Positions 40,756-64,000 of a DNA stretch of 64,000 nt are shown in pieces. Position 1 is the first letter of the stretch, and each line of letters starts with the position of its first letter. Made by a program: the position numbers and the translations under genes. The notes beneath the pieces were generated by a model that had not been told where the DNA came from, searched no databases, and was given only the letters and a program-made list of their open reading frames with translations. The stretch is from Escherichia coli (GTDB lineage: Bacteria; Pseudomonadota; Gammaproteobacteria; Enterobacterales; Enterobacteriaceae), in NCBI RefSeq assembly GCF_024298765.1, contig NZ_CP101210.1. One strand, given 5' to 3'.

Positions 40756-41679
40756 TCACTCATCCCGCGCCGGACGATTTATTTTTCTGGCGCGGCGACG
40801 GGAATCCATTGAAATCAAAATCACTGATGACAGAATCAGAAGCGTTCCCAGCCAGTCCGGTAATGTGAATGTGATCCCCAGCAACAGCAAAGAGAGCAGC
40901 GCGCTACTTAATGGTTCTGCACAGCTCAAAATGCTGGCTTTTGGACCGCCAATTAATTGTGCTCCTTTCAGGTACAGACTAAATGTCAGGGACGTACCAA
41001 TGACCACCAAATAAAAAAACGCCAGAATCAAACTGCCGTTAACGACAAAGTTTGTCCCTTGTCTGGCATAAAAAGGCAACAGAATCAGACCGCCGATCAG
41101 CATACTCCAGCCGACGACAGGCAACGTGCCATAGCGGGCAATCAGCGTTGAGGGATAGGTGGTATAGAATGCCGCAGCAAATGCCGAGGCAATGCCCCAG
41201 AATAACGCGGCAGGAGAGATCGATAATGACGTCGGATTACCGTGTGTCACCAGTAAAAAAGTCCCGACCAGCGATGTCAAAATAGCGCAAAAAACCAGAA
41301 TGCCCGGGCGGGATTTACGCACCAGTGAGAACCAGGCGACGATAATCGTCGGTGAGAGGAATTGCAGCACCGTTGCCGTGGCAGCATTCGATTTTTCAAT
41401 GGTCAGTAAAAAGGTGAGCTGTACGGTTAGCGCGCCAACCACGGAAAAAATCAGCAGACTAATGGCATCTTTGTGATTGTTAATAATAGAAAAGATTTTA
41501 TCGCCATGAACAAATGACAGCGTCAGCAGAATCAAACCGGCGAATATCAAACGCGTCATAGTCAAAAACTGCGACGACATCTGGCTTTGCTCCATGATGT
41601 ATTGCGCGCAGACCCCTGAACTTCCCCACAACACGGCGGCAATCAGAACGTTCAGCATCCCCTTTCTGGTGGAACCCAT
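40756..41679 (-). CDS. yicL: EamA/DMT-family transporter YicL
   Basis: 307 aa from [21 protein letters not shown]; convergent with nlpA. Confidence 0.85.
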
Positions 41680-41845
41680 TTTTCCCTCTGCATACTGTTT
41701 TGTCTTTTCATCAATATACGTTAAGGATACCACTACCGATGACGGTGAGGGAGTAGAGTAATCAATCAGTTTTAGTGAATGGAGGAAATAATGACATATA
41801 ACAATTATTCATATGGTATTTAAAAAAACTCAATATGAAATTTAA

Positions 41846-42343
41846 TTATTTAATGTTCAATAACTCTATGGCTTTAGTATATTCATCAGGAATACCAATT
41901 GTAAAACAAGGTGCGGTATCGGTAGGTAGATTTTCTTTGTTATCATCATCCAGAACAGAAATAGAAAATTGTCGTTCAGGTGTTGATGTCGTGGTTATTA
42001 AAATGGTTGGATTAGGAAGAGAAACATATGTTGTATCATTTTTTAGTTTTATTTCTTTGATGTTTTCTTTGTTAATTTTATCAATCGTTTCAATAGAGAA
42101 AAAAGAATCATACCCCATTCGCAGTTCAATTTTATTATCGTTTTCGAATAAATAAATGGCATTATTGTTTTGAAGCAGATTGAATATATTGTTAGCGCAA
42201 GTTTGAGTTGCTAGCCAGGATGCCGCTGGATGACTCAAATTAATATGCGTGCTAAAGACTTTGACGCGACTACTTCTGTTTTTCTCTTTACTTTCAATTA
42301 AATGCCTAGCGCTTTTGGCTGCTTTACAAGTTCCATGCCCCAC
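41846..42343 (-). CDS. hypothetical protein (AT-rich orphan ORF; possible N-terminal membrane anchor)
   Basis: 165-aa ORF from GTG; in-frame upstream codons encode a hydrophobic stretch (IVIIKLIGTIFSVVIGVILIVSIL) with no canonical start before a stop. Confidence 0.35.
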   Translation of the reverse strand: MGHGTCKAAKSARHLIESKEKNRSSRVKVFSTHINLSHPAASWLATQTCANNIFNLLQNNNAIYLFENDNKIELRMGYDSFFSIETIDKINKENIKEIKLKNDTTYVSLPNPTILITTTSTPERQFSISVLDDDNKENLPTDTAPCFTIGIPDEYTKAIELLNIK

Positions 42344-42784
42344 ACGGCAAAAATAATCTCCTGAAAGGATACTTACAATCAGTATTACACCAATGACGAC
42401 AGAAAAAATAGTTCCGATGAGTTTGATGATGACAATCCTTGTGCAGTGTTATTTTCACCATGGATTATAATGTTATAGTGAAATTATTGCGCATGTAATT
42501 TTTCTTTGATTGTTTTAACATCACATTTATGCACTTCTTCATCTTTGTAGCAGGTAAAAGCCATATATGGATGGCTGGTGTCCGGTGCAGATAAAATGCA
42601 ACTTATTCTTGATAGCTTGAAAAAAAGAGAGGTTTTTTTGAGTGACGGTTGATAGTCGGTGGCAAGGAAGACGTTTTCGTACACTCGGCAAGAAAAACGA
42701 ATCACTCTGTCATACTACCAGATACATCAGCAGGGTCAGGTTGCTCAGAAATAAGCAGGATGGGGATCACTGAAGAGGCATTTT

Positions 42785-42804
42785 GGCGATCACAGGAGTC
42801 GAAT
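42785..42804 (-). repeat. selC 3-prime-end-like att remnant (island distal boundary)
   Basis: ggcgatcacaggagtcgaat contains gatcacaggagtcgaa, the reverse complement of the tRNA-Sec 3-prime end ttcgactcctgtgatc (from memory of selC). Confidence 0.5.
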
Positions 42805-42938
42805 ATGAGTGTTAATGTTTTGATTTTAAATGATTAATCTGTGTTGGATAAATGAGTAACCCCCATAAGAACCCCCAAATAACTTTGTGTAAGGGAATGA
42901 AGCTAAAATACACAATCGAATCAATTCTTAGAGCTTTA

Positions 42939-43781
42939 TTATGAAGGTAACACTCCCGGATAGTGTTTCGCAATAATATCATTCAGCCTGTCAACCAGTT
43001 CTGGTTTCCTGAACCTGATGTGCGCGGAGCCTTTCTTAAAGTATCTGATGCTGAACATCTCATCTTCATAGCATTCTTTACCCTGAACAGACCGGATGTG
43101 ATCATCCAGACGAATAGTGATGTTTTCCCGGTTGTCGGGGATCGGTTTACCGCTGAACAGGTGCAACATTCTTTCCAGATCGGCGAGTCGGTCAGCCTGT
43201 TGCCCGGTGATAAGATGAAATCCCCACCGGTCCCACCTTACCAGGTTGTTAATGATAATTTTACTGCCAAATTTACAGGGGCAATTAGTTTTGTAATTCC
43301 AGCTCAGTCCCCTGAAGACGTTGATCACCCCTCGCTCAAACACTTCATCTTTGTTCTGGTGCAGTTGTTTAAATGTGCTCAGAATGTTCGCTTCGCTGAT
43401 TTCCGGAAAATTATCGTATTCCAGTGACCGGTACCATGTCTCACGGGCCTGCGCATCCATTAATGACAGCATCCCGGAACGTTGCATCAGGTCACGCCAG
43501 ATTTCGCGATCGAGATTGCGGGTGATGGCTTTCATTGCCGTTTCAGGTTTTTCCATCAGCCAGCAACCACAGCGAAAATCCTGTTTCATCGCCCAGTCCA
43601 GTGCGGCTTTACCGTCAATACTTTCTGTCATTGCTGAGATTTCTGCCAGTTGCCGGGTAAGTGTGTCGATTTGCAGCAGCGTACTCTTTCGTACAGCCAG
43701 AATGTGGCGGATACTGGTTGAGCAGATAACGTCCGTATGCCCGTTGACCACTTCCGGACGGGGGGCTGTGATTTCAGACAT
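42939..43781 (-). CDS. hypothetical protein (DUF4942-like, terminal gene of CP4-type islands)
   Basis: 280-aa ORF; last gene of the minus-strand backbone block; family assignment from memory. Confidence 0.55.
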   Translation of the reverse strand: MSEITAPRPEVVNGHTDVICSTSIRHILAVRKSTLLQIDTLTRQLAEISAMTESIDGKAALDWAMKQDFRCGCWLMEKPETAMKAITRNLDREIWRDLMQRSGMLSLMDAQARETWYRSLEYDNFPEISEANILSTFKQLHQNKDEVFERGVINVFRGLSWNYKTNCPCKFGSKIIINNLVRWDRWGFHLITGQQADRLADLERMLHLFSGKPIPDNRENITIRLDDHIRSVQGKECYEDEMFSIRYFKKGSAHIRFRKPELVDRLNDIIAKHYPGVLPS

Positions 43782-43865
43782 AATCGATATTCCTTTTTGC
43801 AGATAAATGAAAACGCCTGCCCTGTTCAGGCTGGCGTCAGTGGAATGAAGTCTGGTGAGTAAGAC

Positions 43866-44288
43866 TCACCGGTTCTGGTACAGAAGCTGCAGTTGGCGCA
43901 GGGTACGGATATCCTCCCTGGCCTGTTCAATACAGGGCAACAGTGCTGCCGAATCCGTTTTGTCCTCATCGTTGTCAAAGATAATTTCCGATTCGCAGTC
44001 AATATTGTCCTGCAGCCACGCAATGAGGATATCCAGCGCTGTTTCAGTGGTTAATGGCATCACGCTCTGTATCACTGTATTGTCTTCCGGCAACTGATGA
44101 GGGCTGGCAGAAGTCGCCGGTGTTTCGGTAGCGTCATGTTCATCCACCACGCGGAGTGAATAACCGTTTTCAGCGACTTTGTTAATCAGTTCAGCGAGCT
44201 TAATACCATCGACGTCAACGACAATGCGCCCCATGTTCAGCGCCTGCGCATTAATGCTGTCGGCTTCCAGCGTCAGGGCCAGTTTCAT
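43866..44288 (-). CDS. YeeW-like protein
   Basis: 140-aa ORF immediately downstream of the CbtA-like toxin, with 4-bp overlap. Confidence 0.55.
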   Translation of the reverse strand: MKLALTLEADSINAQALNMGRIVVDVDGIKLAELINKVAENGYSLRVVDEHDATETPATSASPHQLPEDNTVIQSVMPLTTETALDILIAWLQDNIDCESEIIFDNDEDKTDSAALLPCIEQAREDIRTLRQLQLLYQNR

Positions 44289-44662
44289 TGTTTCGCCCCC
44301 GGATGTTTACCCAGGGTAATGTTATTTACCGTTCTGTAGTTGTCGCGTGTCATCAGGCCGGTTGCCCGGCGTGCCCGGAGGATATCAATACTGTTTATTA
44401 ACTGAGAACGGGTACAGGCGCTGAATCCCGGCTGGTCGGTACGTACCAGCGCGTATTTTTCAACGAGAAAGTTCACCGCATCACACAGTGAAATGCCCGC
44501 TTCAATATGCTGCTCAATCACACGTTCATCAGCGAACGGTGTGTCATTCAGCGCGAGGCCGTAGTGCTGGTCCAGTAACCGGGTGAGCAGTGTCTGCCAG
44601 ATGGTGACGGGAGACGGGCAGCACGATGCCTCCCGTACATGCGTGTCGGGTAATGTTTTCAT
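44285..44662 (-). CDS. cbtA: type IV toxin-antitoxin toxin, CbtA/YkfI/YpjF family
   Basis: 125 aa from MKTLPDTHVREASCCPSPVTIWQTLLTRLLDQHYGL...; strong match to remembered CbtA family sequence. Confidence 0.85.
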   Translation of the reverse strand: MKTLPDTHVREASCCPSPVTIWQTLLTRLLDQHYGLALNDTPFADERVIEQHIEAGISLCDAVNFLVEKYALVRTDQPGFSACTRSQLINSIDILRARRATGLMTRDNYRTVNNITLGKHPGAKQ

Positions 44663-44751
44663 AATGAAGATTTTCCTGATATGCAGAGATAAAAAATGGG
44701 ACAGTGGCGTGGTGAAAGCACCAGGCCGGAGCAGAAGGTTATTCTGGAGAG

Positions 44752-45120
44752 TTACTTTTTCGTTTCGGGCGTCGGATAAACAGCCATATAAACGTAGCCA
44801 CAACTGCCGAGGGTGTCGGCTTTGCAGGTCAGACCTTTTGCATACAGCGTGACGGTATGCTGATGGCGGGGATTCAGTTCACCGCTGGTGAGCATGAGTT
44901 CCAGTTGTTTCATCAGCAGCGGAAAGGCCTGGTCCAGGTGGTACGCATCTGCATCGCTGAACAGGCCTCTGATACCGGCGCGGTCGGCAAGGTAATGCAG
45001 GCGGTTACCCTCCTGCACCAGACGTGCCCCGAAACAGGGCGTCACGGTGCAGGGCAGCCCCCACCAGGGGCGGTCGTGATTGTCGTCGGGAAGCATTGTC
45101 CCGGAGAGTGCGTCTGACAC
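44752..45120 (-). CDS. cbeA: type IV toxin-antitoxin antitoxin, CbeA/YafW/YfjZ family
   Basis: 122 aa MSDALSGTMLPDDNHDRPWWGLPCTVTPCFGARLVQEGNRLHYLADRAGIRG...; directly upstream of toxin. Confidence 0.85.
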   Translation of the reverse strand: MSDALSGTMLPDDNHDRPWWGLPCTVTPCFGARLVQEGNRLHYLADRAGIRGLFSDADAYHLDQAFPLLMKQLELMLTSGELNPRHQHTVTLYAKGLTCKADTLGSCGYVYMAVYPTPETKK

Positions 45121-45282
45121 GATAAAATCCTCACAGAAAATCGGTTAAGAATGGTTTAACGATGACAGGTCAGCCGGCGCGCAGACCGCCTTCGGTAAAG
45201 GTGTATTCGTTTATGAGCAGGGCCTCATCCACAGCGGCGTCTGAGCTCAGCCAGTCGTACTCGTTTTCCGGGTGACGGAACA

Positions 45283-45504
45283 TCAGTTCAGGGTGACGCT
45301 CATCAGCCGGACATACGGGCCAAAACTGTCCTTACGACGTTCAGCAAACACGGCCAGCACACCGGGAATATCCTGTACTTCACGACCGGTATACGTCTCA
45401 GCACTGCCGTGCCAGCGGTACTTACCGGTGTAGAACGGAAAAAGACGGGATGCAGGATGTTGTTGGTGAATACGCATGGCTTCACCACGAGTGATAATTT
45501 TCAT
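45283..45504 (-). CDS. DUF987 protein (YeeT/YpjJ-like)
   Basis: 73 aa MKIITRGEAMRIHQQHPASRLFPFYTGKYRWHGSAETYTGREV... Confidence 0.75.
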   Translation of the reverse strand: MKIITRGEAMRIHQQHPASRLFPFYTGKYRWHGSAETYTGREVQDIPGVLAVFAERRKDSFGPYVRLMSVTLN

Positions 45505-45566
45505 AATGGGATACCTCTGAAGACAGAAGATAAAAGTGAAAACAGGTGTGATGTGGTTGTGACGGG

Positions 45567-46043
45567 TTAAAGCAGACCATGTTCGGCAAAGGAGAAAACC
45601 TGGTTGCCACCGACTATCAGATGGTCCGGCACCCGGATATCCACCAGGCCCAGTGCCTGTACCAGACGTTCGGTGATAAGCCGGTCTGCCTTACTGGGTG
45701 TGACTTCACCGGACGGGTGATTGTGCGCCAGCACCACGGCAGCGGCATTGTGGTACAGGGCGCGTTTAATCACTTCCCGGGGATGGACTTCCGTGCGGTT
45801 GATGGTGCCGGTGAAGAGGGTTTCACCGGCAATCAGCTGATTCTGGTTATTCAGATACAGTACCCGGAATTCTTCACGCTCCAGTCCCGCCATGTTCAGA
45901 ATCAGCCATTCCCGTGCCGCACGGGTGGAGGTGAAGGCCACGCCGGGTTCATGAAGATGACGGTCCAGGGTTTTCAGGGCCCGCTGAATAAGGCTGCGCT
46001 CGCCGGGCGTCATCGCTCCGGGCAGAAAGGAAAGCTGTTGCAT
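45567..46043 (-). CDS. RadC-like JAB-domain protein (YeeS/YkfG/YfjY family)
   Basis: 158 aa; JAMM motif HNHPSGEVTPSKAD. Confidence 0.85.
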   Translation of the reverse strand: MQQLSFLPGAMTPGERSLIQRALKTLDRHLHEPGVAFTSTRAAREWLILNMAGLEREEFRVLYLNNQNQLIAGETLFTGTINRTEVHPREVIKRALYHNAAAVVLAHNHPSGEVTPSKADRLITERLVQALGLVDIRVPDHLIVGGNQVFSFAEHGLL

Positions 46044-52842: not shown

Positions 52843-53373
52843 TTAAGCTACATTGTTGTTATGACTGACAGGATTGTTTTCTTCCCCTGACTCTGGGCTT
52901 AACAGTCCCTGGCGTTGTAGATATTCACTGACTGACATTCCAGAACTACGGATCCTGTCAGAGATTTTACGAAATTGATCCTTCCATTCTGCAGGTAATT
53001 TCTTAATTTGTCTGACTTTACAGGCTACACTGTACGGGGTTCGCCCTAGTTTCTCTGCCAGCCAGAAAAGGTGTTTACCAATTTCATCGTCCGGTACATC
53101 CTCCAGAACATCTCGCAATAAACTCTCGTCTGCCTCATTCCATGCCACACCAGCATTTGGGAAACGAGGATCGATCTCTCTTTCCTTCTTCTCCTTCTTA
53201 CTTTGCTCTTTTCGGGATGATACAGATACGACAGAACGTTCTTTTACCGCTGTAATTGCCATAACTGCATTGAGCAGAGATCTGCGCTCCACATCGTTCA
53301 GCATTTTTCCTTCACAGATCAAATCATTCAGGATGTCAATGACTAGATTCAGACTTTCTTCTGTTAGCTTCAT
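52843..53373 (-). CDS. hypothetical protein with putative HTH
   Basis: 176-aa ORF; AAGG RBS 8 nt upstream; charged KE-rich linker; HTH-like LAEKLGRTPYSVACKVRQIKK. Confidence 0.55.
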   Translation of the reverse strand: MKLTEESLNLVIDILNDLICEGKMLNDVERRSLLNAVMAITAVKERSVVSVSSRKEQSKKEKKEREIDPRFPNAGVAWNEADESLLRDVLEDVPDDEIGKHLFWLAEKLGRTPYSVACKVRQIKKLPAEWKDQFRKISDRIRSSGMSVSEYLQRQGLLSPESGEENNPVSHNNNVA

Positions 53374-53987
53374 ATTTCAGACCTTGAAGTATGTAGATAA
53401 TCAGCACAATTACTAATGTGATAAATATCAGAAGATAATTTACAGGTAAACCGGAAAATACATCTGAAGAATAAAGGCCTCAGCTTAACGTTTCAGCCAG
53501 TTTGTGAGCTGATTGAGGTACGGCGATGACATTAACGGGAATTACTCCCCTATAGCTCTGAGCTTATTTTTCACCCTGGCAACATATGGTGGCTACTGCG
53601 CATGGTTTTGGAGTAGATATCTTACTACTCGTAGAATTGTGCTTACTGGTCAGGCCAGCGCACAGGCATTCCGTGCAATCAATAGAACACTGGTTTTTTA
53701 GTCTTCCGTTACCCATCAGGATGTTAGTGCAGATTCCGGTGTATTCGATCAGTTGTTCGGCGAATCAGCGATCGATCACGATGCGATTTCGTATGTTAGG
53801 GATGCTGGTATGATTACTCGCTGAAAAATAATGTGAAAAGGCAGTTTTTCTTTAGACATTTAGCTCATTCATGCTGTTGTTTTACGTTTTGCTGTCGTGT
53901 GCAGGATTATCTTTTCGTTACGGGACGATTCATTCCGTTTTAATCAGGAGCTATTGGCGTTGCTCATTGGTGGGATGCCGTAAAGTT

Positions 53988-54035
53988 TTACCGCGGCGAT
54001 TAATGATGTGAAGTCAATCCAAATCAACGGAGATC
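53988..54035. repeat. conserved leader element (copy 1) shared with 62702-62744
   Basis: ttaccgcggcgattaatgatgtgaagtcaatccaaatcaacggagatc versus ttaccgccttgcttaatgatgtgaactgaagtcaacggagatc. Confidence 0.55.
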
Positions 54036-54042
54036 TCTCATC

Positions 54043-54774
54043 ATGAATCAACCAATACACAATGATTACTGGTTATCCCGTTTTGAAAGTATTCTCAACA
54101 GTGCCCTGGTGCAACACCGTGCCGTCTCGTTAATCCGGGTGGATTTACGTTTCCCTGAGCATATGCCTGTCACCATCATGGATCCCGATCCGGATTCAGC
54201 GGTGATTTCTCGTTTTTTCGAATCCCTGAAAGCCAAAATTCAGGCTTACCAGCGGAAAAAACGACGTACCAACAAGCGTGTGCGTGCAACCACCCTGCAT
54301 TATTTCTGGTGTCGAGAGTTTGGCAAGGAAAAAGGCAGGAAACATTATCACGTGATATTACTGCTCAACAAAGATACCTGGTGCTCGCCAGGGGATTTCA
54401 CCGTTCCTTCTTCGCTGGCGACGCTGATCCAACTGGCATGGTGTAGCGCTCTGCATCTTGAGCCCTGGCAGGGTAATGGACTGGTTCATTTTTCCAGGCG
54501 GACGCCTTTCCGTAAACCGGCATCATCTGATGCTCGCCCTTCTTCCGATGATACGCCTTTGTCGGGTGGATGTTCTGAAACCAGGAAGGCTTCAGACAAA
54601 AAGCCGGGTGAAGCCGCTGTTCTCTGGATCAAGCGTGGTGATGTGGAAGCGATGCAGAAAGCCATGGAGAGAGCCCGTTATCTCGTGAAGTATGAGACGA
54701 AGCAGCATGACGGTTCTGGTCAACGTAATTATGGTTGCAGCCGTGGAGCGGGGCGTCTACTGGATGGCAGGTGA
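54043..54774 (+). CDS. inovirus Gp2-like replication-associated protein (YagK/YfjJ family)
   Basis: 243 aa; HYHVILLL motif region; family assignment from memory. Confidence 0.65.
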   Translation: MNQPIHNDYWLSRFESILNSALVQHRAVSLIRVDLRFPEHMPVTIMDPDPDSAVISRFFESLKAKIQAYQRKKRRTNKRVRATTLHYFWCREFGKEKGRKHYHVILLLNKDTWCSPGDFTVPSSLATLIQLAWCSALHLEPWQGNGLVHFSRRTPFRKPASSDARPSSDDTPLSGGCSETRKASDKKPGEAAVLWIKRGDVEAMQKAMERARYLVKYETKQHDGSGQRNYGCSRGAGRLLDGR

Positions 54775-54884
54775 ACCCTGTAAAACGGCATCCGGTGCCA
54801 GAGTATATGTCACAGTAAGGTCGTTGGCTGACGCCCTTAGCTCGTTTTCTGAAAAAGTTTTTCTGAAGTAATGTGGATTTGCCC

Positions 54885-55790
54885 CTATATTTCCAGACAT
54901 CTGTTATCACTTAACCCATTACAAGCCCGCTGCCGCAGATATTCCCGTGGCGAGCGATAACCCAGCGCACTATGCGGATGCCATTCGTTATAATGCTCGA
55001 ACGCCTCTGCAAGGTTCTTTGCTGCCGTTAACCCGTCTGGTTTGGGCATGATACTGATGTAGTCACGCTTTATCGTTTTCACGAAGCTCTCTGCGATTCC
55101 GTTACTCTCCGGACTCCGCACCGCCGTGTTCTTCGGTTCAAGTCCCAACATCCGGGCGAACTGGCGTGTTTCATTAGCCCGGTAGCATGAACCATTATCC
55201 GTCAGCCACTCCACTGGAGACGACGGAAGATCGTTGCCGAAGCGGCGTTCCACCGCTCCCAGCATGACGTCCTGTACTGTTTCACTGTTGAAGCCGCCGG
55301 TAGTGACCGCCCAGTGCAGTGCCTCACGATCACAGCAGTCCAGCGCGAACGTGACACGCAGTCTCTCTCCGTTATCACAGCAGAACTCGAACCCGTCAGA
55401 GCACCATCGCTGATTGCTTTCTTTCACGGCCACTCTGCCTGTATGTGCCCGTTTCGATGGCGGTACAGCAGGTTTTCGCTCAAGCAACAGCGCATTCTGG
55501 CGCATGATCCGGTAAACACGTTTGGCATTGATCGCAGGCATACCATCAAGTTCGGCCTGTCTGCGAAGCAGCACCCATACCCGACGATAACCATATGTGG
55601 GCAGCTCTCCGATAACATGGTGTATACGGAGAAGCACATCCGTATCATCAGTGTGACGGCTGCGGCGACCATCTTTCCAGTCATCGGTTCGTCTGAGAAT
55701 GACGTGCAACTGCGCACGCGACACCCGGAGACAACGGCTGACTAAGCTTACTCCCCATCCCCGGGCAATAAGGGCGCGTGCGCTATCCAC
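54885..55790 (-). CDS. insD: IS2 transposase InsD (OrfB)
   Basis: 301 aa [34 protein letters not shown]...; DDE integrase core. Confidence 0.92.
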
Positions 55791-56113
55791 TTTTTTGCAC
55801 GCCCATATTCAACGGCTTCTTTAAGGAGTTCATTTTCCATCGTTTTTTTGCCGAGCAGGCGCTGGAGTTCTTTAATCTGCTTCATGGCAGCAGCAAGTTC
55901 AGAGGCAGGAACGACCTGTTCTCCTGCGGCCACAGCAGTAAGACTTCCCTCCTGGTATTGCTTGCGCCAGAGAAATAACTGGCTGGCTGCCACACCGTGT
56001 TGCCGGGCAACAAGGGAGACCGTCATTCCCGGTTCAAAACTCTGCTGAACAATAGCGATCTTTTCCTGTGTAGTACGCCGTCTGCGTTTCTCCGGTCCTA
56101 AGACATCAATCAT
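55748..56113 (-). CDS. insC: IS2 InsC (OrfA)
   Basis: 121 aa from [29 protein letters not shown]. Confidence 0.9.
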
Positions 56114-56261
56114 CTGCTCTCCAATGACTAGTCTAAAAACTAGTATTAAGACTATCACTTAAATAAGTGATATTGGTTGTCTGGAGATTCAGGGGGGCCA
56201 GTCTACTGAATGAGCGAAATGTGATTTACCTTCTTTTCTGTTCATTGTAAATTCCCTCTTT

Positions 56262-56290
56262 GCTAACGCAAATCATTATCATTACGCCTT
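56262..56290 (+). promoter_or_regulatory. putative Fur box in receptor promoter
   Basis: aatcattatcattac contains AATCATTATC, an exact match to the 3-prime half of the Fur consensus GATAATGATAATCATTATC. Confidence 0.45.
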
Positions 56291-56306
56291 TGGCAAAGGG
56301 AAATTT

Positions 56307-58355
56307 ATGAAGAACAAATATATCATTGCTCCGGGCATTGCCGTGATGTGTTCTGCAGTTATATCATCAGGTTATGCCAGTTCTGATAAAAAAGAAGATA
56401 CGCTTGTTGTTACTGCCTCCGGGTTCACTCAGCAGCTCAGAAATGCCCCGGCCAGTGTCTCAGTCATTACTTCAGAACAACTGCAAAAAAAACCGGTTTC
56501 AGATCTGGTCGATGCAGTAAAAGATGTTGAAGGGATTAGTATCACTGGTGGGAATGAAAAACCGGATATCAGTATACGTGGTCTAAGTGGCGATTACACG
56601 CTGATTCTGGTCGATGGACGACGTCAGAGCGGTCGGGAATCCAGACCAAACGGCAGCGGCGGTTTTGAAGCCGGATTTATCCCTCCTGTGGAAGCAATTG
56701 AACGCATTGAAGTGATCCGTGGCCCTATGTCTTCCCTGTATGGTTCTGATGCCATCGGAGGGGTCATTAATATCATAACCAAACCAGTTAATAACCAAAC
56801 ATGGGATGGCGTACTTGGACTTGGGGGGATTATTCAGGAACATGGGAAATTTGGTAACTCAACCACAAATGACTTCTATCTGTCAGGCCCATTGATTAAG
56901 GATAAACTTGGTCTTCAGCTATATGGAGGAATGAACTATCGCAAGGAAGATAGTATCTCTCAGGGAACACCGGCAAAAGATAATAAGAATATAACGGCAA
57001 CGCTCCAGTTTACTCCGACTGAAAGCCAGAAGTTTGTTTTTGAATATGGAAAAAATAACCAGGTGCATACATTAACACCTGGTGAGTCTCTCGATGCCTG
57101 GACTATGCGGGGAAATCTTAAACAACCAAACAGTAAAAGAGAAACGCATAATTCACGTAGTCACTGGGTAGCAGCATGGAATGCCCAGGGCGAAATACTG
57201 CATCCTGAAATTGCTGTTTATCAGGAGAAAGTTATTCGTGAGATTAAATCAGGTAAAAAAGATAAATATAATCATTGGGATCTTAATTACGAGTCAAGAA
57301 AACCGGAAATAACCAACACAATCATAGATGCAAAAGTGACGGCATTTCTGCCGGAAAATGTACTGACCATCGGAGGTCAATTTCAGCATGCAGAGCTCCG
57401 TGATGACTCAGCCACGGGTAAAAAAACGACAGAAACACAGTCTGTTTCAATTAAACAGAAAGCTGTTTTTATAGAAAATGAATATGCAGCAACGGATTCT
57501 CTCGCCCTGACTGGAGGACTGCGTCTCGATAATCATGAAATCTATGGCAGTTACTGGAATCCAAGATTGTACGCTGTTTATAACCTGACCGATAATCTCA
57601 CACTCAAAGGGGGGATCGCAAAAGCATTTCGGGCTCCTTCAATTCGTGAGGTGAGTCCTGGATTTGGAACACTGACGCAGGGTGGTGCCTCTATTATGTA
57701 TGGAAACAGGGACCTGAAACCGGAGACCAGTGTAACCGAAGAGATCGGTATTATTTATAGTAATGATAGTGGTTTTTCGGCGAGCGCGACGCTGTTTAAT
57801 ACTGATTTTAAAAATAAGTTGACCAGTTACGATATAGGTACAAAAGATCCAGTCACCGGGTTAAACACTTTTATTTATGATAATGTAGGTGAGGCAAATA
57901 TCAGAGGGGTGGAGCTTGCAACTCAGATTCCTGTGTATGATAAATGGCATGTATCTGCAAACTATACATTTACTGACTCTCGTCGAAAAAGTGATGACGA
58001 AAGTCTCAATGGCAAGTCGCTGAAAGGGGAACCTCTGGAAAGAACTCCCAGACATGCAGCCAATGCAAAACTGGAATGGGATTACACTCAGGATATTACA
58101 TTTTATTCATCTCTGAATTATACGGGAAAACAAATCTGGGCAGCACAAAGAAATGGTGCTAAGGTTCCCCGCGTTCGTAATGGATTCACATCTATGGATA
58201 TTGGTCTAAATTACCAGATTCTGCCAGACACGCTGATTAATTTTGCCGTTCTTAACGTCACAGACAGAAAGAGCGAGGATATCGATACCATTGATGGTAA
58301 CTGGCAGGTCGATGAAGGACGCCGTTATTGGGCTAATGTAAGAGTATCCTTCTGA
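56307..58355 (+). CDS. ireA: TonB-dependent outer-membrane siderophore receptor (IreA-like)
   Basis: 682 aa; signal peptide; TonB box DTLVVTAS; plug domain; C-terminal beta-barrel ending in F; symbol from memory of IreA length and N-terminus. Confidence 0.7.
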   Translation: MKNKYIIAPGIAVMCSAVISSGYASSDKKEDTLVVTASGFTQQLRNAPASVSVITSEQLQKKPVSDLVDAVKDVEGISITGGNEKPDISIRGLSGDYTLILVDGRRQSGRESRPNGSGGFEAGFIPPVEAIERIEVIRGPMSSLYGSDAIGGVINIITKPVNNQTWDGVLGLGGIIQEHGKFGNSTTNDFYLSGPLIKDKLGLQLYGGMNYRKEDSISQGTPAKDNKNITATLQFTPTESQKFVFEYGKNNQVHTLTPGESLDAWTMRGNLKQPNSKRETHNSRSHWVAAWNAQGEILHPEIAVYQEKVIREIKSGKKDKYNHWDLNYESRKPEITNTIIDAKVTAFLPENVLTIGGQFQHAELRDDSATGKKTTETQSVSIKQKAVFIENEYAATDSLALTGGLRLDNHEIYGSYWNPRLYAVYNLTDNLTLKGGIAKAFRAPSIREVSPGFGTLTQGGASIMYGNRDLKPETSVTEEIGIIYSNDSGFSASATLFNTDFKNKLTSYDIGTKDPVTGLNTFIYDNVGEANIRGVELATQIPVYDKWHVSANYTFTDSRRKSDDESLNGKSLKGEPLERTPRHAANAKLEWDYTQDITFYSSLNYTGKQIWAAQRNGAKVPRVRNGFTSMDIGLNYQILPDTLINFAVLNVTDRKSEDIDTIDGNWQVDEGRRYWANVRVSF

Positions 58356-58372
58356 GAGTATATAAAGACAAC

Positions 58373-58393
58373 CTGAGGCCGTGAGCCTCAGGT
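58373..58393 (+). terminator. stem-loop downstream of receptor gene
   Basis: cctgaggccgtgagcctcagg; no clear T-run. Confidence 0.4.
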
Positions 58394-59736
58394 ACCAGTG
58401 TAGTAATCAGTAATGTCAGTTTCCAGGTTGTAATGCTTTTAATCTTGATTAAAATAATCTTAATAATTTAAACTTGTTAAATATCGATGATTTTAATTTG
58501 AGAGCGTTCAGAATTCTGTGTCACGTTAAAAATTCTACAGCGTCATCACATTATTCAGCCGCCCTTCAAAATAAATGGCTAACTGCGACAATGTCAAATT
58601 CCAGCTTTGGATGGGCATTGTCCATTTCTCCTGTGCGTTCATCAGTCCCAGATAAAGTAGCTTCAACAGGCTGTTTTCATTCGGGAAAGCACCTTTAGGT
58701 TTTGGTCAGTTTCCTGAACTGGCGGTGGACTGATTCTATCGCGTTGGTTGTGTAGATCACCTTGCGGATATTCGCCGGATAGCGGAAGTACGCTGACAGA
58801 TTTTCCCTCTTGCGGCGCCAGGACTGGAGCACCACCGGATATTGCTGCCCCCGTTTCGCTTCCAGCTCATCCAGCGCCGTTTCCGACACCGCACGATACA
58901 CTGGCTTCAGGTCGGCCATGAACGCTTTATGGTGTTTTGACGCCACATATTTAATCGAGTTACGTATCTGGTGAATGACGCACAACTGTACCTCTGTCTG
59001 CGGATAAATGCTGTTTATCGCTTCAGGGAAGCCGGTCAGCCCATCCACGCAGGCAATCAGAATGTCTTCAACGCCACGGTTTTGCAGATCACTTAATACT
59101 GACAGCCAGAAGTTAGCGCCTTCGCTTTCCGACAAATACAGGCCCAGGACTTCTTTTTTGCCTTCCAGATTCAGCGCCAGTACGGTATAAACTGCCTTGC
59201 TCTGATAACACCCATCTTCGCGGATTTTATAGTGAATGGCGTCCAGCCAGACGAAGGGATAAACCTTTTCCAGCGGGCGCTGCTGCCACTGTTTTAACTC
59301 AGGAATGACTTTATCGGTAACCGCACTGATGGTAGCCGTGGAAACACTGAAGGCATATAAATCTTCGATCTCCCGGCTGATATCCTGGTAGCTCATCCCC
59401 AGCGCGAACAGGCGAATGATCTTGCGCTCGAGCTCATCAGACAGCGTGGTCTGGTGCTTCTTCACCAGTTGGGGTTCAAAATAACCATTACGATCACGTG
59501 GAGTTGCCAGCTCAAAGCTGCCAGTCGGGGCTTTAATGGTCTTTTTTCCGGAACCATTTTTACGATTGACTTCAAAATCCTGAGCCAGATGGGAGTCGAG
59601 TTCAGCGGCCAGAGCGGTTTCTGTTAACTGTTTGATTAATGGCGTTAGGATACCATCCTTGCCGGTTAATGCTTGGCCGGACTGAACCGCCCCGGAAATC
59701 CTGGAGACTAAACTCCCTGAGAAAGAGGTAAACAGG

Positions 59737-60063
59737 ATGACTAAAAATACTCGTTTTTCCCCCGAAGTCCGTCAACGGGCAGTTCGTATGGTTCTGGAAA
59801 GTCAGGGCGAATATGACTCACAATGGGCGGCAATTTGTTCCATTGCTCCAAAGACTGGCTGTACGCCGGAGACTCTGCGTGTCTGGGTTCGCCAGTATGA
59901 GCGGGATACCGGGGGCGGAGATGGAGGGCTCACCAGTGCTGAACGTCAGCGTCTGAAAGAGCTGGAACGTGAAAATCGTGAACTGCGCCGCAGCAACAAT
60001 ATCCTTCGCCAGGCTTCCGCTTATTTTGCGAAGGCGGAGTTCGACCGCCTCTGGAAAAAGTGA
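59737..60063 (+). CDS. IS629 OrfA
   Basis: 108 aa [39 protein letters not shown]... Confidence 0.88.
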
Positions 60064-60950
60064 TGGCACTGCTGGATAAGCTGCGTGAGCAGTACGGGGT
60101 CAGACCGGTATGCAGTGAACTGCATATTGCCCCGTCAACGTATTACCACTGTCAGCAACAGCGACATCATCCTGATAAACGCAGTGCACATGCACAGCGC
60201 GATGACTGGCTGAAGAGAGAGATACAGCGCGTATACGATGAAAATCATCAGTGTACCGTGTGCGTAAAGTCTGGCGCCAGTTGTTACGGGAAGGAATCAG
60301 GATGGCCAGATGTACAGTGGTGCGCCTCATGGCGGTTATGGGACTTGCCGGTGTTCTCCGGGGTAAAAAGGTCCGCACTACCGTCAGCCGGAAAACCGTT
60401 GCCGCAGGTGACCGCGTAAACCGTCAGTTCGTGGCAGAACGTCCTGACCAGCTGTGGGTGGCTGATTTTACTTACGTCAGCACATGGCAGGGCTTCGTCT
60501 ATAGTGGCGTTCATCATTGATGTATTTGCCGGATATATCGTGGGGTGGTGGGTCTCATCGTCTATGGAAACGACATTCGTGCTGGATGCGCTGGAGCAGG
60601 CGTTGTGGGCCCGCCGTCCGTCCGGCACCATCCATCACAGCGATAAAGGCTCTCAGTATGTGTCACTGGCCTATATGGAGCGATTAAAAGAAGCAAAACT
60701 GCTGGCATCAACAGGGAGTACAGGCGACTCGTATGACAACGCGATGGCGGAGAGCATCAATGGTCTTTACAAAGCGGAGGTAATACACCGTAAGAGCTGG
60801 AAAAACCGTGCAGAAGTGGAACTGGCCACACTCACGTGGGTGGACTGGTATAACAATCGACGATTGCTGGGAAGGCTGGGCCATACTCCTCCGGCAGAAG
60901 CAGAAAAAGCTTATTATGCTTCCATCGGAAACAATGATCTGGCAGCCTGA
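60060..60950 (+). pseudogene. IS629 OrfB transposase, frameshifted
   Basis: DDE transposase sequence split over three overlapping frames (60060-60419, 60251-60520, 60504-60950). Confidence 0.8.
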
Positions 60951-61097
60951 GTTCACAGATAAAACACTCTCCAGGAAACCCGGGGCGGTTCAGGACTGGA
61001 GTGCCTTAAGCGCTTTATCGAAATCGAAGGGTTGGGACATGTGTCATTCCTTTTTGGTTGTATATTACTGGAATGACACAGAATTTCTAACACTCCC

Positions 61098-62085
61098 TTT
61101 AATTTAGGTTTATTACTATTATTATACTTACTCTCTTTTTTACATGACCTCAATCTTTACGATTATATTCACTCTATCTTTACACATTCCATTACTCTTA
61201 TCCTCATCCAATTATATTCATGTCCTTCTCTAATCTTCCTTGTCACCATTATCATAATATCCACTTCTTCCCTCATTCAATCATAATTACTGTAATTCAT
61301 ACGTTACTCAGATAAGTTATTCTCTACAGCTACGCTATTGTTGATATCCATCTGTTCTCATTTTCAGTGAAACAGTAATTGATTTTAATTTATCCATCAT
61401 GAACTGTATTTGCTTAACAATGATTGTTTATCTGAAGTGTTTTAACTATTCTGGTTGGAAACAATTTCTCTGTCATCAAAGATTAACTGAATGTTTACTC
61501 TTTGATAAGGTATCCATGGTTCCGTCATGTTTAACAGCGCAGGATAAACAACAGAATTAACAGAGTGAATTTCTGATTATATTTGTTGCCGGTTGTATTG
61601 TTTAAGGTACTGGGTGAAAATTATTCATCCATTGTATGTTGTCTTATGCTATCGTGTGTCGTTAACGTTCATATCCTGGAAAACAGATTGAATAAGCGCG
61701 TGTGAGTTTATTGTGGTGACCTTATAAACGTTTTTTCAGACTCACTGAGAGCAAATTTACAAATCATGAGCTTATAGTTGTAATATGTTTCCTAACCGCC
61801 TGGCAGCGGGATTACAGTTCGTATTTTTCTGTATTTCACTGTGTTGTATTGAATCTGTATTTTCTTCGCACCTCGTTTATCTCATCTCTATAGACAATGC
61901 CATCAGATAACTCATACCCTTCAGCACAACGCTGTGTGTCGTTAATAATCCGTCGTATCCATTCTGTTACAGCATGCCTGATAAATACCATCTGTAAGTT
62001 ATTACCGTTTTAGATCTGATTATGAGCGAAAGCATTAATTCGCTCACAGAGCTTAAAACATCATTAACTTTCAGGAGTCATCAAC
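61098..62085. other. about 1 kb ORF-free AT-rich spacer with G-depleted tract
   Basis: No ORF of 60 aa or more on either strand; 61108-61300 is pyrimidine-rich on the plus strand with about six G. Confidence 0.6.
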
Positions 62086-62652
62086 ATGCCTAAATCTTAC
62101 ACACCAAACTGGTTTTTTACCGCTTTACTTGACAATCACATCAATCAAATGATGGCACGCTATTCCTGCCTGCGGGCCTTACGGATGGATTTCTTCTACA
62201 GGAAGGATACGCCTGATTTCTTACAACCTGATCATCGTTGGCTTGAATTACAACTGCGTATGCTGCTGGAGCAGGTTGAACAGTTTGAAAATATGGTTGG
62301 CTTCTTCTGGGTGATTGAATGGACGGTTGATCATGGTTTTCATGCGCATGTGGTCTTCTGGCTCGATCGTCAGAGGGTTAAAAAAATATATCCCTTTGCG
62401 GAGCGGATTACGGAATGCTGGCGGTCTATTACGCATAACAGCGGTTCGGCACACCGCTGTACATATCAGCCGCATTATACATACAACATCAACATTCCTG
62501 TGCGCCACAACGATCCTGAAAGCATCGATAATATTCGCGGTGCCCTGCATTATCTGGCAAAAGAAGAGCAAAAAGACGGGCTGTGTGCCTACGGCTGCAA
62601 TGAAGTTCCTGAACGTCCTGCTGCAGGGCGTCCTCGTAAGCCTCACTTCTGA
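62086..62652 (+). CDS. inovirus Gp2-like protein (YagK/YfjJ family paralogue)
   Basis: 188 aa; FHAHVVFWLDRQ motif region analogous to HYHVILLLNKD of the 54043 gene. Confidence 0.6.
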   Translation: MPKSYTPNWFFTALLDNHINQMMARYSCLRALRMDFFYRKDTPDFLQPDHRWLELQLRMLLEQVEQFENMVGFFWVIEWTVDHGFHAHVVFWLDRQRVKKIYPFAERITECWRSITHNSGSAHRCTYQPHYTYNINIPVRHNDPESIDNIRGALHYLAKEEQKDGLCAYGCNEVPERPAAGRPRKPHF

Positions 62653-62701
62653 AGCTTAAATCCTGAGCTTCCTGTCCTGGAAACATTCCGTCGGTAAAAC
62701 C

Positions 62702-62744
62702 TTACCGCCTTGCTTAATGATGTGAACTGAAGTCAACGGAGATC
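62702..62744. repeat. conserved leader element (copy 2)
   Basis: See copy 1 at 53988-54035. Confidence 0.55.
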
Positions 62745-62909
62745 ATTCACTCTGAACCACATCCGGTGTTCTGTCCCTTGTCGGTGACCTGATCTTCCCG
62801 TTCTGCCCCGGTTCTTCACTTATTCCATCAACCCCATCCGCAAACCATAACACGTCAGCTTATTCACGGGCAGGACGCATTGTGGGCTGCGCATAACGGA
62901 GCATATCTT

Positions 62910-63482
62910 ATGAATGCTATCCCTTATTTCGACTATAGCCTGGCCCCCTTCTGGCCATCTTATCAGAACAAAATCATCGGCGTTCTCAACCGTGTGTTGC
63001 GCGAGCAGTCCTGCTCCCGAATACGGCGGATCCTGCTTCGTCTGCCGGGGGAACATGGCAACATCTTCAGCGACAGAAAAACCTGGTTCGGTATGGCCTT
63101 TATCGAAACCGTCAGTGCGCTGATGAATGCAACACCCGGACGTGACCTCTGCTGGCTCCTGACACGTCATCCTGAAAAACCGGAATACCACGTGGTGCTG
63201 TGCGTCAGACAGGAGTATTTCGACGGCCCTGAACTGGATCGGCTGATTCTGGATGCCTGGAGCAACGTACTGGGCTTCGCATCACCGGGTGAAGCAGCAC
63301 CGTACCAGAAGCAGATCACCCGGGATGTGGTGCTGGACAGTTGTTCACCGGACTGCGAAGAGAGACTCAAAGAGCTGATATGGGCGTTCAGTGATTTCGC
63401 CCGCGATCGTCGTGGTGTGCGCGATCCGGAAGCCCGTTACCTCGCCGGTAATCCCTGGTATCCCGTAGCAGGCCAGCTCTGA
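62910..63482 (+). CDS. hypothetical protein, possible third Gp2-like paralogue
   Basis: 190 aa from MNAIPYFDYS; GGAG RBS; EYHVVLCVRQEYF motif. Confidence 0.5.
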   Translation: MNAIPYFDYSLAPFWPSYQNKIIGVLNRVLREQSCSRIRRILLRLPGEHGNIFSDRKTWFGMAFIETVSALMNATPGRDLCWLLTRHPEKPEYHVVLCVRQEYFDGPELDRLILDAWSNVLGFASPGEAAPYQKQITRDVVLDSCSPDCEERLKELIWAFSDFARDRRGVRDPEARYLAGNPWYPVAGQL

Positions 63483-63550
63483 AAGCTCAGCTCAGCAGAT
63501 TCACCCGCATTTGCCCAACATTCATAAATCTCACAGAGGACATTCTGACC

Positions 63551-63787
63551 ATGTTGACCTCAATGACAGGTCACGACAGCGTATTGCTGCGTGCCGACGA
63601 TCCCCTGATCGACATGAACTACATCACCAGCTTCACTGGTATGACCGACAAATGGTTTTACAAGCTGATCAGTGAAGGCCATTTCCCTAAACCCATCAAA
63701 CTGGGGCGCAGCAGCCGCTGGTACAAAAGTGAAGTGGAGCAGTGGATGCAGCATCGAATCGAGGCATCACGAGGGGCAGCAGCATGA
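63551..63787 (+). CDS. AlpA-family prophage regulatory protein (excisionase-like HTH)
   Basis: 78 aa; ...ITSFTGMTDKWFYKLISEGHFPKPIKLGRSSRWYKSEVEQWM resembles AlpA/Xis-type HTH. Confidence 0.7.
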   Translation: MLTSMTGHDSVLLRADDPLIDMNYITSFTGMTDKWFYKLISEGHFPKPIKLGRSSRWYKSEVEQWMQHRIEASRGAAA

Positions 63788-64000
63788 AACGTGTTGTAAT
63801 GCCGGTACGCTGGCAATGTGCAAAATACCAGCGTTGGTATTGTGGAAATCAGCCCTGTCCCTGGTGCTGGCGACATTTACGTTCATCTTCTTGCAGACAT
63901 TCTCCAGTCAGCCAGCAGGTTGTAGCTCTTCCTGACTGATTCGTCATTCCATTCTTATTGATTATAACTGGCATTACACCGGTGCTGGCGTGCTTTCCTG

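Follow-up and report, generated by a model that had tools for sequence, protein, structure and literature searches.

What do the two genes that follow the cbtA toxin gene at the end of an Escherichia coli genomic island do, and does the nearer of them belong to the toxin-antitoxin module? CbtA/CbeA is the founding type IV toxin-antitoxin system. In the window, a stretch of 64,000 nucleotides of E. coli DNA, a preliminary description had recognised a YeeW-like gene of 140 codons and a DUF4942-like gene of 280 codons downstream of cbtA, and had proposed the former as a possible third component of the module. The families and contexts of both genes have already been described. Both belong to catalogued families of unknown function, which bears out the earlier statement that neither has an established role. 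Neither appears to be required by the adjacent CbtA/CbeA pair. We lean towards reading the studied stretch as the end of a CP4-44/933L-type genomic island inserted at selC in E. coli, comprising its final two units of expression. The main features are given below.

44752..45120, minus strand: cbeA, YeeU-type antitoxin gene, first gene of the operon (Pfam CbeA_antitoxin, E 4.5e-54; RefSeq)
44285..44662, minus strand: cbtA, YeeV-type toxin gene (125 aa), of the clade with a long C-terminal tail (Pfam CbtA_toxin, E 2.6e-62)
43866..44288, minus strand: 140-codon gene, an in-frame YeeW-N/DUF957 fusion or "short form" (ORF list, Pfam, RefSeq, DNA alignment)
43806..43838, minus strand: terminator-like GC-rich hairpin with a U-rich tract (scan match; fold z = -2.45)
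42939..43781, minus strand: DUF4942 gene, 280 aa, with its own AAGGA Shine-Dalgarno sequence, last gene of the island (Pfam, 234 bits)
42784..42803, plus strand: remnant of the selC tRNA 3' end, 20 nt (exact 16-mer, 0 expected by chance; comparison with K-12 selC)

The genes upstream are identified by Pfam as CbtA_toxin, CbeA_antitoxin, DUF987, RadC and Antirestrict, and the block around the two genes also holds DUF932 genes beside Antirestrict and RadC (Pfam, RefSeq). The CbtA/CbeA block is present in a median of three copies in E. coli genomes. On the other side, 135 bp separate the DUF4942 stop codon from the selC remnant, which lies in reverse complement and has a 4-nt deletion. The remnant adjoins the native selC flank GAGGCATTT at 42775-42783, so that remnant and flank together occupy 42775-42803, and homology with the K-12 backbone ends near 41708. 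The remnant marks an attR-type island boundary, and the claim that the 280-aa gene terminates the island is upheld by its position relative to the remnant and to the end of backbone homology. An Rfam scan of 41500-46000 returned no credible match.

The 140-codon gene is made up of two domains joined by a linker.

44118..44288, minus strand: YeeW N-terminal domain (DUF5983_N, PF25638), aa 1-57 (Pfam, 97.8 bits against a cutoff of 27)
44064..44117, minus strand: 18-aa linker (TETPATSASPHQLPEDNTVIQSV region; DNA alignment, codon view)
43866..44063, minus strand: DUF957 domain, aa 76-140 and stop codon (RefSeq; similarity to stand-alone DUF957)
43854..43870, minus strand: 7-bp hairpin GGUGAGU-CUU-ACUCACC across the stop codon of the gene (RNA fold)

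The Pfam match to DUF5983_N covers aa 4-57 (97.8 bits, E 2.8e-28), and 17 positions of the domain are invariant across genera. The linker stands in place of the ~105-aa DUF5983 C-domain of the long-form YeeW. DNA alignment reveals that ~277 bp of the long-form locus are missing in the window with the reading frame preserved, and no match to that C-domain (PF19419) was observed in the ORF by Pfam even at E up to 10. PF19419 has been assigned a glyoxalase/bleomycin-resistance-like fold (Salmonella pangenome preprint). DUF957, for which the current Pfam-A has no model, shares 89% identity with its stand-alone counterpart in locus L002. The designation "YeeW-like" is accordingly correct for residues 1-57 but not for residues 76-140, which are DUF957, and it does not extend to the absent PF19419. 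The protein is strongly acidic, with a pI of 4.17 for the whole and 4.05 for the DUF957 part. A single-sequence AF2 model reached a pLDDT of 39, too low for use. Neither the 140-aa protein nor the long-form YeeW had a match in PDB sequence searches, NCBIfam, PHROGs and PADLOC yielded nothing for the former, and a profile search with the YeeW N-domain retrieved Enterobacterales DUF5983 proteins only, with no new domain partners. We also note that the hairpin across the stop codon is found in E. coli and E. albertii loci and is not conserved in other genera.

The CbtA of the window is 89% identical to K-12 CbtA. TCA at 44285-44287 and CAT at 44286-44288 read as ATGA on the minus strand, which places the TGA stop of cbtA inside the overlap and confirms that the 140-aa gene overlaps the toxin stop by 4 bp. 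A Shine-Dalgarno-like GGGGG run lies within cbtA, 7 nt upstream of the start codon. The ATGA overlap is kept in every YeeW locus examined, namely the E. coli long and short forms, K-12, E. albertii, Salmonella diarizonae, Mixta and Hafnia. This arrangement suggests that the 140-codon gene is translationally coupled to cbtA, in that ribosomes ending cbtA could restart at the overlapping ATG. In the compact operons of mobile elements such overlaps of start and stop codons are frequent, and functional partnership need not follow from them.

Comparison of intact alleles with dS up to 0.45 gives a dN/dS of 0.18-0.30 for the whole 140-aa ORF, and of 0.30-0.46 and 0.11-0.20 for the YeeW N-domain and DUF957, respectively. 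Intact fusion ORFs of 140 or 137 aa persist at 77-93% identity. These values point to a real gene under purifying selection. As the DUF4942 gene is likewise under purifying selection, with a dN/dS of 0.11-0.12, and the two have hundreds to thousands of homologues, neither ORF is attributable to chance. The Hafnia alvei homologue (121 aa, 54% identity) likewise consists of N-domain and DUF957 and overlaps the ORF upstream of it by 4 bp; near its DUF957 there is no start codon in frame. The three E. coli alleles examined each have an internal start codon at the junction, ATG or GTG, from which DUF957 could be translated separately. Of 5,426 E. coli genomes, 916 contain a match to the short-form junction probe and 3,766 the long-form C-domain, making the long form about four times commoner.

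The order of the long-form reference locus is cbtA, a 162-aa DUF5983 gene, 11 bp, and a 65-aa DUF957 gene. Most islands likewise encode a YeeW of 162 aa and, after it, DUF957 as an independent gene, which in such loci has its own start and Shine-Dalgarno sequence. The N-domain and DUF957 of the long form are homologous to those of the window and reside in the same operon, with DUF4942 next. The long form differs in having the PF19419 C-domain and two ORFs, whereas the window lacks that domain and has the remaining two parts fused. Since some lineages have the YeeW N-domain and DUF957 in one protein and others in two, these parts most likely act together. K-12 YeeW (prophage CP4-44, DUF5983) resembles the window gene in position, ATGA overlap, N-domain and its descent from the short-form linker lineage. 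It ends, however, at 64 aa with a TAA in the linker and has an extra 93-nt deletion in DUF957, while the ORF of the window runs uninterrupted through all 140 aa. Among the database matches, ORFs of 52-99 aa with the N-domain alone are frequent, some of them labelled partial; together with the K-12 linker stop, this shows that the fusion is often lost.

A recent preprint (bioRxiv 10.64898/2026.06.09.728211) describes a domain, ANF00264 of AntiFam, that always adjoins cbtA/cbeA and is either fused to DUF5983, placed after a C-terminally truncated DUF5983, or separate; a confident homodimer with a helical fold was predicted for it. From this description, DUF957 is likely ANF00264, and the window fits the "truncated DUF5983 + ANF00264" context. 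The present results argue that the AntiFam label "spurious" is wrong for DUF957. The preprint's idea of a programmed -1 frameshift between DUF5983 and DUF957 was weighed and set aside. Of the long-form loci, 8 have a frame offset of -1 and 5 an offset of +1, unlike the window, where DUF5983_N and DUF957 are in frame. A slippery heptamer, GGGTTTA, occurs in canonical phase in some loci, is missing from several and is not conserved. In Mixta, a stop codon closes the DUF957 frame before the DUF5983 ORF is reached, which also speaks against a programmed frameshift.

The second gene is an ordinary member of the DUF4942 family, sharing its terminal position in islands and showing no difference of note. 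The PF13708 match covers aa 87-275 (234 bits, cutoff 25, E 1.1e-69), and W95, D201, H254 and N267, invariant in 102 DUF4942 sequences, are all present, in agreement with the earlier assignment. The family is kept at 30-45% identity in >1,000 clusters beyond Enterobacterales. The AF2 model of the protein has a pLDDT of 89, and no solved structural relative of the predicted fold was found. The terminator-like hairpin is located directly upstream of the DUF4942 ribosome-binding site. It is kept in 18 loci of several genera with compensatory changes in 4 of 8 pairs; the window copy has one A-A mismatch. The same hairpin is also present where DUF4942 follows cbtA directly. DUF4942, which this conserved structure precedes, is not translationally coupled to the genes upstream. 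Small ORFs over the cbtA stop in loci without YeeW were considered as analogous third genes and set aside, the conserved one being a 39-codon DUF4942 remnant behind the same hairpin.

DUF4942 matches PHROG 6263, "DNA methyltransferase", and the viral protein that it resembles most closely in fold is a "Type I restriction enzyme" of 531 aa. Proteins of 460-468 aa join DUF4942 to an MTS/Methyltransf_11 domain with EPSAGxG and NPPF motifs. In such fusions from phages and mobile elements (PHROG 6263, for example P0334 of 468 aa), the N-terminal ~270 aa are homologous to the window protein at 38-42% identity, and the window protein stops where their EPSAGxG/NPPF catalytic domain starts. Neither a methyltransferase Pfam match nor PPF or PPY was found in its sequence. 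An identity as an N6-adenine-type DNA methyltransferase ("restriction methylase") was rejected, as the SAM-binding and NPPF motifs are present in the 460-aa fusions only. To judge from these comparisons, DUF4942 would be the non-catalytic N-terminal module of some phage and mobile-element NPPF-type (N6-adenine-like) methyltransferases, here occurring by itself. This gives a lead for the family, as the non-catalytic half of a phage methyltransferase family without a solved structure. PADLOC returned nothing for DUF4942. The gene neighbourhoods of three distant homologues were short or told little; in one of them, N6_N4_Mtase genes lie at a distance of 2 kb on the opposite strand.

Several explanations can be weighed against these data. 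Three-gene toxin-antitoxin systems are known, such as toxin-antitoxin-chaperone modules and omega-epsilon-zeta, and they share with the window a third small gene in the operon of the toxin. The 140-aa protein could similarly be an obligatory part of a tripartite CbtA/CbeA module, required for toxin activity or neutralisation. The conserved ATGA coupling is in its favour, as is the linkage of YeeW, which is always downstream of cbtA and not seen apart from it, with cbeA-cbtA directly upstream in 10 of the 10 IMG/VR loci found by the YeeW profile. A SLING-type survey also flags DUF5983 as a downstream CbtA_toxin "partner" in most E. coli sequence types (PMC10790755). In the known three-gene systems, however, the third gene belongs consistently to the module and has a shown role, whereas the YeeW-like gene is missing from most cbtA family members. 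The preliminary description had suggested a co-occurrence comparison, and at family level the gene proved frequently absent beside intact cbtA: of the 63 intact cbtA-family genes that representative Enterobacterales genomes contain, just 5 have it downstream and 58 are without it. The K-12 toxin paralogues ykfI and ypjF have no YeeW-like gene, and the third K-12 locus has only the 64-aa yeeW stub without DUF957. Moreover, the toxin is described as sufficient for toxicity and the antitoxin as sufficient for rescue (PMC6521040), and the same two-gene function is described in PMC5371832 and PMC5624674. The distribution thus largely refutes a tripartite module, which we consider very unlikely. Because of that distribution and of the two K-12 paralogues out of three without YeeW, the gene is seen as an accessory of one clade rather than an obligatory third component, and we infer that its product may be a non-essential accessory confined to the long-tailed CbtA clade. 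The annotation in RefSeq (PGAP) follows another line, splitting the ORF into a DUF5983 pseudogene and a separate 65-aa DUF957 CDS. Here the N-part would be a decaying remnant of a truncated yeeW, and DUF957 alone would function, from the internal ATG at 44063. The abundance of the long form, the independent DUF957 gene in it, the K-12 linker stop, the many N-only truncations and the junction ATG or GTG in the E. coli alleles all agree with such decay. Yet the dN/dS of the N-domain is still 0.30-0.46, the whole ORF has stayed open across a dS of ~0.45, the Hafnia fusion does without an internal start, and both the cbtA-embedded Shine-Dalgarno sequence and the ATGA overlap are retained. DUF957 is in frame with the upstream N-domain, and its internal ATG is preceded by a weak Shine-Dalgarno sequence (AGAG). 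We regard this explanation as unlikely, though it deserves more credit than the other alternatives. In practice, the analysis shows that an intact gene of two domains, kept by selection, is annotated by RefSeq across hundreds of genomes as a pseudogene with a small CDS behind it.

That both ORFs are useless, neutral leftovers at a decaying island end is extremely improbable. The region is recombination-prone, with numerous chimeric and truncated variants, and some YkfI-type islands retain just the 39-codon DUF4942 remnant; but purifying selection on both genes is strong (dN/dS ~0.1-0.3), and the spread of DUF4942 beyond Enterobacterales and its confidently predicted fold do not suit a leftover. 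A role in anti-defence is somewhat less doubtful, although still rather unlikely. Both proteins would help the island to become established, as would the KlcA/ArdB-type antirestriction gene nearby: YeeW-DUF957, acidic and dimeric, would mimic DNA or a protein, DUF4942 would be a decoy or specificity factor derived from a methyltransferase, and the coupling to cbtA would be incidental. The low pI, the dimer predicted in the preprint, the block shared with Antirestrict, RadC and DUF932 genes, and the homology of DUF4942 to the N-terminal module of phage methyltransferases are consistent with it. It is at odds with the strict tie of YeeW to one cbtA clade, the antirestriction gene being also found in islands without YeeW. 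No structural similarity to known DNA mimics was found, nor did any model of PADLOC match, a collection of defence rather than anti-defence models. The explanation that we favour by a modest degree builds on the observed anatomy, family membership, selection, conservation of the coupling and distribution, and combines two expression units with accessory and recognition roles; binding partners and biochemical roles we infer. Unit one would be the tail of the cbeA-cbtA operon, encoding the very acidic protein of 57-aa YeeW N-domain, 18-aa linker and 65-aa DUF957, which may act as a small acidic dimer produced in step with CbtA, binding or buffering the toxin. Unit two would be DUF4942, set apart by the conserved terminator-like hairpin and its own ribosome-binding site; it may recognise a DNA or protein partner in the service of the island and would not methylate. 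A more elaborate and improbable extension would make YeeW-N/DUF957 a direct CbtA-binding second antitoxin or dosage buffer, creating a hybrid system in which CbeA acts on the targets of the toxin and another protein sequesters it, and DUF4942 a trans-acting, methyltransferase-derived specificity or adaptor subunit that redirects or blocks a host DNA-modifying enzyme for the island.

A protein made in fixed proportion to CbtA and absent from the K-12 copies used experimentally means that the natural module could behave unlike the studied one. We also note that the genes appear under other names in the sources. The YeeW and DUF957 families are named "aec77" and "Aec78", and DUF4942 members "aec79" or "restriction methylase". 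In the table of the SRL island, the long-form YeeW and DUF957 are orf54 and orf55, matched to L0008 and L0009, and DUF4942 is orf56, matched to L0010 (PMC6980539).

All genes of interest lie on the minus strand of the E. coli chromosome window. The 140-aa and 280-aa ORFs and the 4-bp overlap of the former with the cbtA stop, as reported in the preliminary description, are correct, since the ORF listing, the overlap in the raw sequence and the Pfam assignments agree. The locus and its boundary comprise the following features.

41709-42886, AT-rich segment (29-41% GC) between yicL and the selC remnant
41846-42343, orphan 165-aa ORF within the AT-rich segment
42784-42803, island boundary, marked by a remnant of the selC 3' end that has lost 4 nt by deletion compared with the intact tRNA end
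42939-43781, minus strand, 280-aa ORF
43866-44288, minus strand, 140-aa ORF
43866-44063, minus strand, RefSeq 65-aa CDS, "DUF957 domain-containing protein"
44112-44288, minus strand, RefSeq pseudogene, "DUF5983 family protein, incomplete, missing C-terminus"

CAT (44286-44288) and TCA (44285-44287) combine to ATGA, a four-base overlap of the 140-aa start with the cbtA stop; 7 nt upstream of this start, inside cbtA, is a GGGGG run. Pfam assigns DUF5983_N to residues 4-57 of the 140-aa ORF (97.8 bits) and DUF4942 to residues 87-275 of the 280-aa ORF (234 bits), and CbtA_toxin, CbeA_antitoxin, DUF987, RadC and Antirestrict to the genes upstream of the 140-aa ORF. The earlier naming of the 140-aa product as YeeW-like is borne out by DUF5983_N but missed the DUF957 part, which is evident from alignment and from RefSeq, where the ORF is divided into two features. 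Among the matches listed, a 2.5-kb probe (42700-45200) is 100% identical to 16 RefSeq genomes, several of which carry it at the same coordinates. The window genes match families with the source names aec77, Aec78 and aec79, and have their counterparts in orf54-56 of the SRL island table (PMC6980539), where these are matched to L0008-L0010; each is a typical member of a catalogued family with no known function. We also note that the RadC/JAB gene (45567-46043) is a homologue of K-12 yfjY, now called lfgB, whose product is reported to be a protease that cleaves the antitoxin MqsA (PMC10846083).

In the commoner arrangement, represented by strain SJ3 (L002), cbtA is followed with the same 4-bp overlap by a 162-aa DUF5983 gene; a DUF957 gene of its own (65 aa) begins 11 bp further on, with DUF4942 next. 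DNA alignment reveals that the window lacks ~277 bp encoding the DUF5983 C-domain; a short linker of distinct sequence stands there instead, and the DUF957 frame is preserved. The short-form lineage also includes K-12 yeeW, which, unlike the window gene, is cut to 64 aa by a TAA in the linker and has an additional deletion within DUF957. Intact ORFs of 140 or 137 aa were found at 77-93% identity, one cluster of them holding 518 member sequences, and an allele at 77% identity occupies a different selC island, where the overlap is retained. For three intact alleles with dS up to 0.45, dN/dS is 0.18-0.30 over the whole ORF, 0.30-0.46 in the N-domain and 0.11-0.20 in DUF957. At 54% identity, Hafnia alvei encodes a 121-aa N-domain-DUF957 protein in an island of this type, where it likewise overlaps the upstream ORF by 4 bp; no in-frame start codon was found near its domain junction, and therefore DUF957 can be translated there only as part of the fusion. 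A junction-specific probe is at least 80% covered in 916 of the 5,426 complete E. coli genomes, and the long-form C-domain is covered in 3,766. The intact alleles, dN/dS values, Hafnia homologue and probe distribution indicate that the short-form fusion is a gene rather than debris; the selection and Hafnia evidence for a real two-domain gene is added here. DUF957 may nevertheless be translated independently, and the fusion may frequently decay, as an ATG or GTG is retained at the junction in E. coli alleles and N-domain-only ORFs are common among database matches. That the YeeW N-domain and DUF957 are fused in some lineages and split in others argues that they probably work together.

A 2026 preprint (bioRxiv 10.64898/2026.06.09.728211) has previously described fused, truncated and separate contexts for the AntiFam domain ANF00264, which adjoins cbtA/cbeA and is, by its description, DUF957. 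The preprint predicts a confident homodimer and proposes programmed frameshifting. As a conserved mechanism, the latter is unsupported by the 13 long-form loci in which we checked it: the DUF957 frame is -1 in eight and +1 in five, a GGGTTTA heptamer in canonical phase is missing from several, and in Mixta the DUF957 frame runs into a stop short of the DUF5983 ORF. DUF957 of the long-form loci has its own ATG, is a separate CDS in RefSeq in L002 and, given the varying frame and heptamer, is simply a separate gene; this case against frameshifting is new here. In three loci of the "+1-type" (L007, L008, L099), the DUF957 frame is open for 383 nt across the DUF5983 gene, which accounts for odd 175-234-aa database proteins (e.g. 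P0166, P0233) consisting of out-of-frame DUF5983 and DUF957.

The coupling had suggested a possible third component of the toxin-antitoxin module, an idea that the family-wide distribution, added here, demotes. When one genome per species was scanned with a CbtA profile, 74 loci in more than 50 taxa of Enterobacterales were found, including 63 intact cbtA-family genes with enough downstream sequence. A YeeW-like gene follows in 5/63, always in the long form with the ATGA overlap and toxins of 124-126 aa; DUF4942 lies within 3 kb without YeeW or DUF957 in 12, and neither YeeW-like gene nor DUF4942 is present in 46. In K-12, no gene is annotated in the ~380 bp between ykfI or ypjF and its next neighbour, thrW or ypjA. 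YeeW-profile loci in IMG/VR have cbeA-cbtA immediately upstream in 10/10, and therefore YeeW implies cbtA, not the reverse. In the cited literature, the toxin alone is toxic and the antitoxin alone rescues for CbtA, YkfI and YpjF of E. coli and CbtA of Erwinia (PMC6521040; PMC5371832, PMC5624674), and DUF5983 had appeared in a genomic survey as a "partner" downstream of CbtA_toxin (PMC10790755). Since YeeW is absent beside 58 of the 63 intact genes, the third-component idea is contradicted at family level, and the 140-aa gene is best seen as a clade-specific accessory. Our preferred guess is a putative toxin-binding or buffering role, because of its acidity (pI 4.17 versus 7.7 for CbtA), predicted dimeric half and coupled translation.

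Several loci deserve separate mention. Short contigs with E. coli-like cbeA-cbtA-yeeW (88-93% identity; L007, L009, L072, L073) from assemblies labelled Collinsella, Lachnospiraceae and Arthrobacter are probably contamination or mis-binning. In one IMG/VR contig (L099, 1751-3515), cbeA-cbtA is partly duplicated in tandem, upstream of its intact copy. Tandem islands of this type are suggested in Trabulsiella (L012, 207-1319) by a DUF957-DUF4942 pair that lies ~3.7 kb upstream of a further cbtA-yeeW module of the same strand.

Two hairpins precede DUF4942: one spans the 140-aa stop, between that stop and the DUF4942 start, and a GC-rich one, followed by UUUUCAUUU, is situated just upstream of the AAGGA ribosome-binding site. 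The latter occurs in 18 loci of several genera, including those with DUF4942 directly after cbtA, with compensatory changes in 4/8 pairs. Because this conserved hairpin, added here, precedes its ribosome-binding site, DUF4942 is a separate, probably attenuated unit outside the translationally coupled block. Islands of the YkfI type in nine species have, after cbtA, a hairpin and U-tract of this kind and then a 39-codon ORF (MQIEAVILTGHII...; L027 5385-5570, also L017, L018, L020, L023, L030, L031, L035 and L078). Its protein sequence is 86-100% identical between genera and similar to the N-terminal ~33 aa of DUF4942 in related loci, and the ORF is therefore apparently a truncated DUF4942.

DUF4942 itself is under strong purifying selection (dN/dS 0.11-0.12). 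At E up to 1e-3, its homologues comprise 2,258 cluster representatives; among the best 150, stand-alone proteins of 250-300 aa predominate. W95, D201, H254 and N267 are invariant and an LSWxYKTNxPxKFG motif is strongly conserved in an alignment of 102 sequences. In the confident AF2 model (pLDDT 89.3, pTM 0.81), a long helix and a helical bundle are accompanied by a C-terminal alpha/beta subdomain. The protein matches PHROG 6263, "DNA methyltransferase", and among viral folds its best match is to a protein of 531 aa named "Type I restriction enzyme". Among four tested family members of 460-468 aa, three have an MTS/Methyltransf_11-type C-terminal domain and all have EPSAGxG and NPPF motifs, whereas the window protein ends before the catalytic domain and lacks both motifs; source names such as "restriction methylase" are therefore misleading for it. 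Our reading, added here, is that DUF4942 represents the non-catalytic half of a methyltransferase family.

That the 280-aa gene terminates the island is upheld by the selC remnant, 135 bp beyond its stop. The 16-mer at 42788-42803 (GATCACAGGAGTCGAA), of which no chance occurrence is expected, is the selC 3' end in reverse complement and with its neighbours reproduces the selC end plus native flank GAGGCATTT of K-12 except for the deletion (TGGCG-ATCACAGG versus TGGCGGAAGATCACAGG in the intact tRNA end). DUF4942 is the last gene of the island. No tRNA was found within the 64-kb window, and the island therefore spans from selC beyond 64000 down to the remnant. Backbone homology with most E. coli including K-12 ends at ~41708, just beyond yicL; K-12 has setC at the position of the AT-rich segment. 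The 165-aa ORF therein has no Pfam, NCBIfam, PHROG or PADLOC match. The segment is common to ABU 83972 and four other sampled genomes (at least 94% coverage), where only yicL and a hypothetical protein are annotated under the match, and a probe of the region is at least 80% covered in 1,102 genomes. At the other side, the island interior (52843-64000), as annotated in the identical RefSeq record, holds IS2, a frameshifted IS256, ISVsa5 and fragments of IS3 together with ireA, a siderophore receptor gene, and a gene of the inovirus Gp2 family, and is a mosaic, IS-riddled cargo region.
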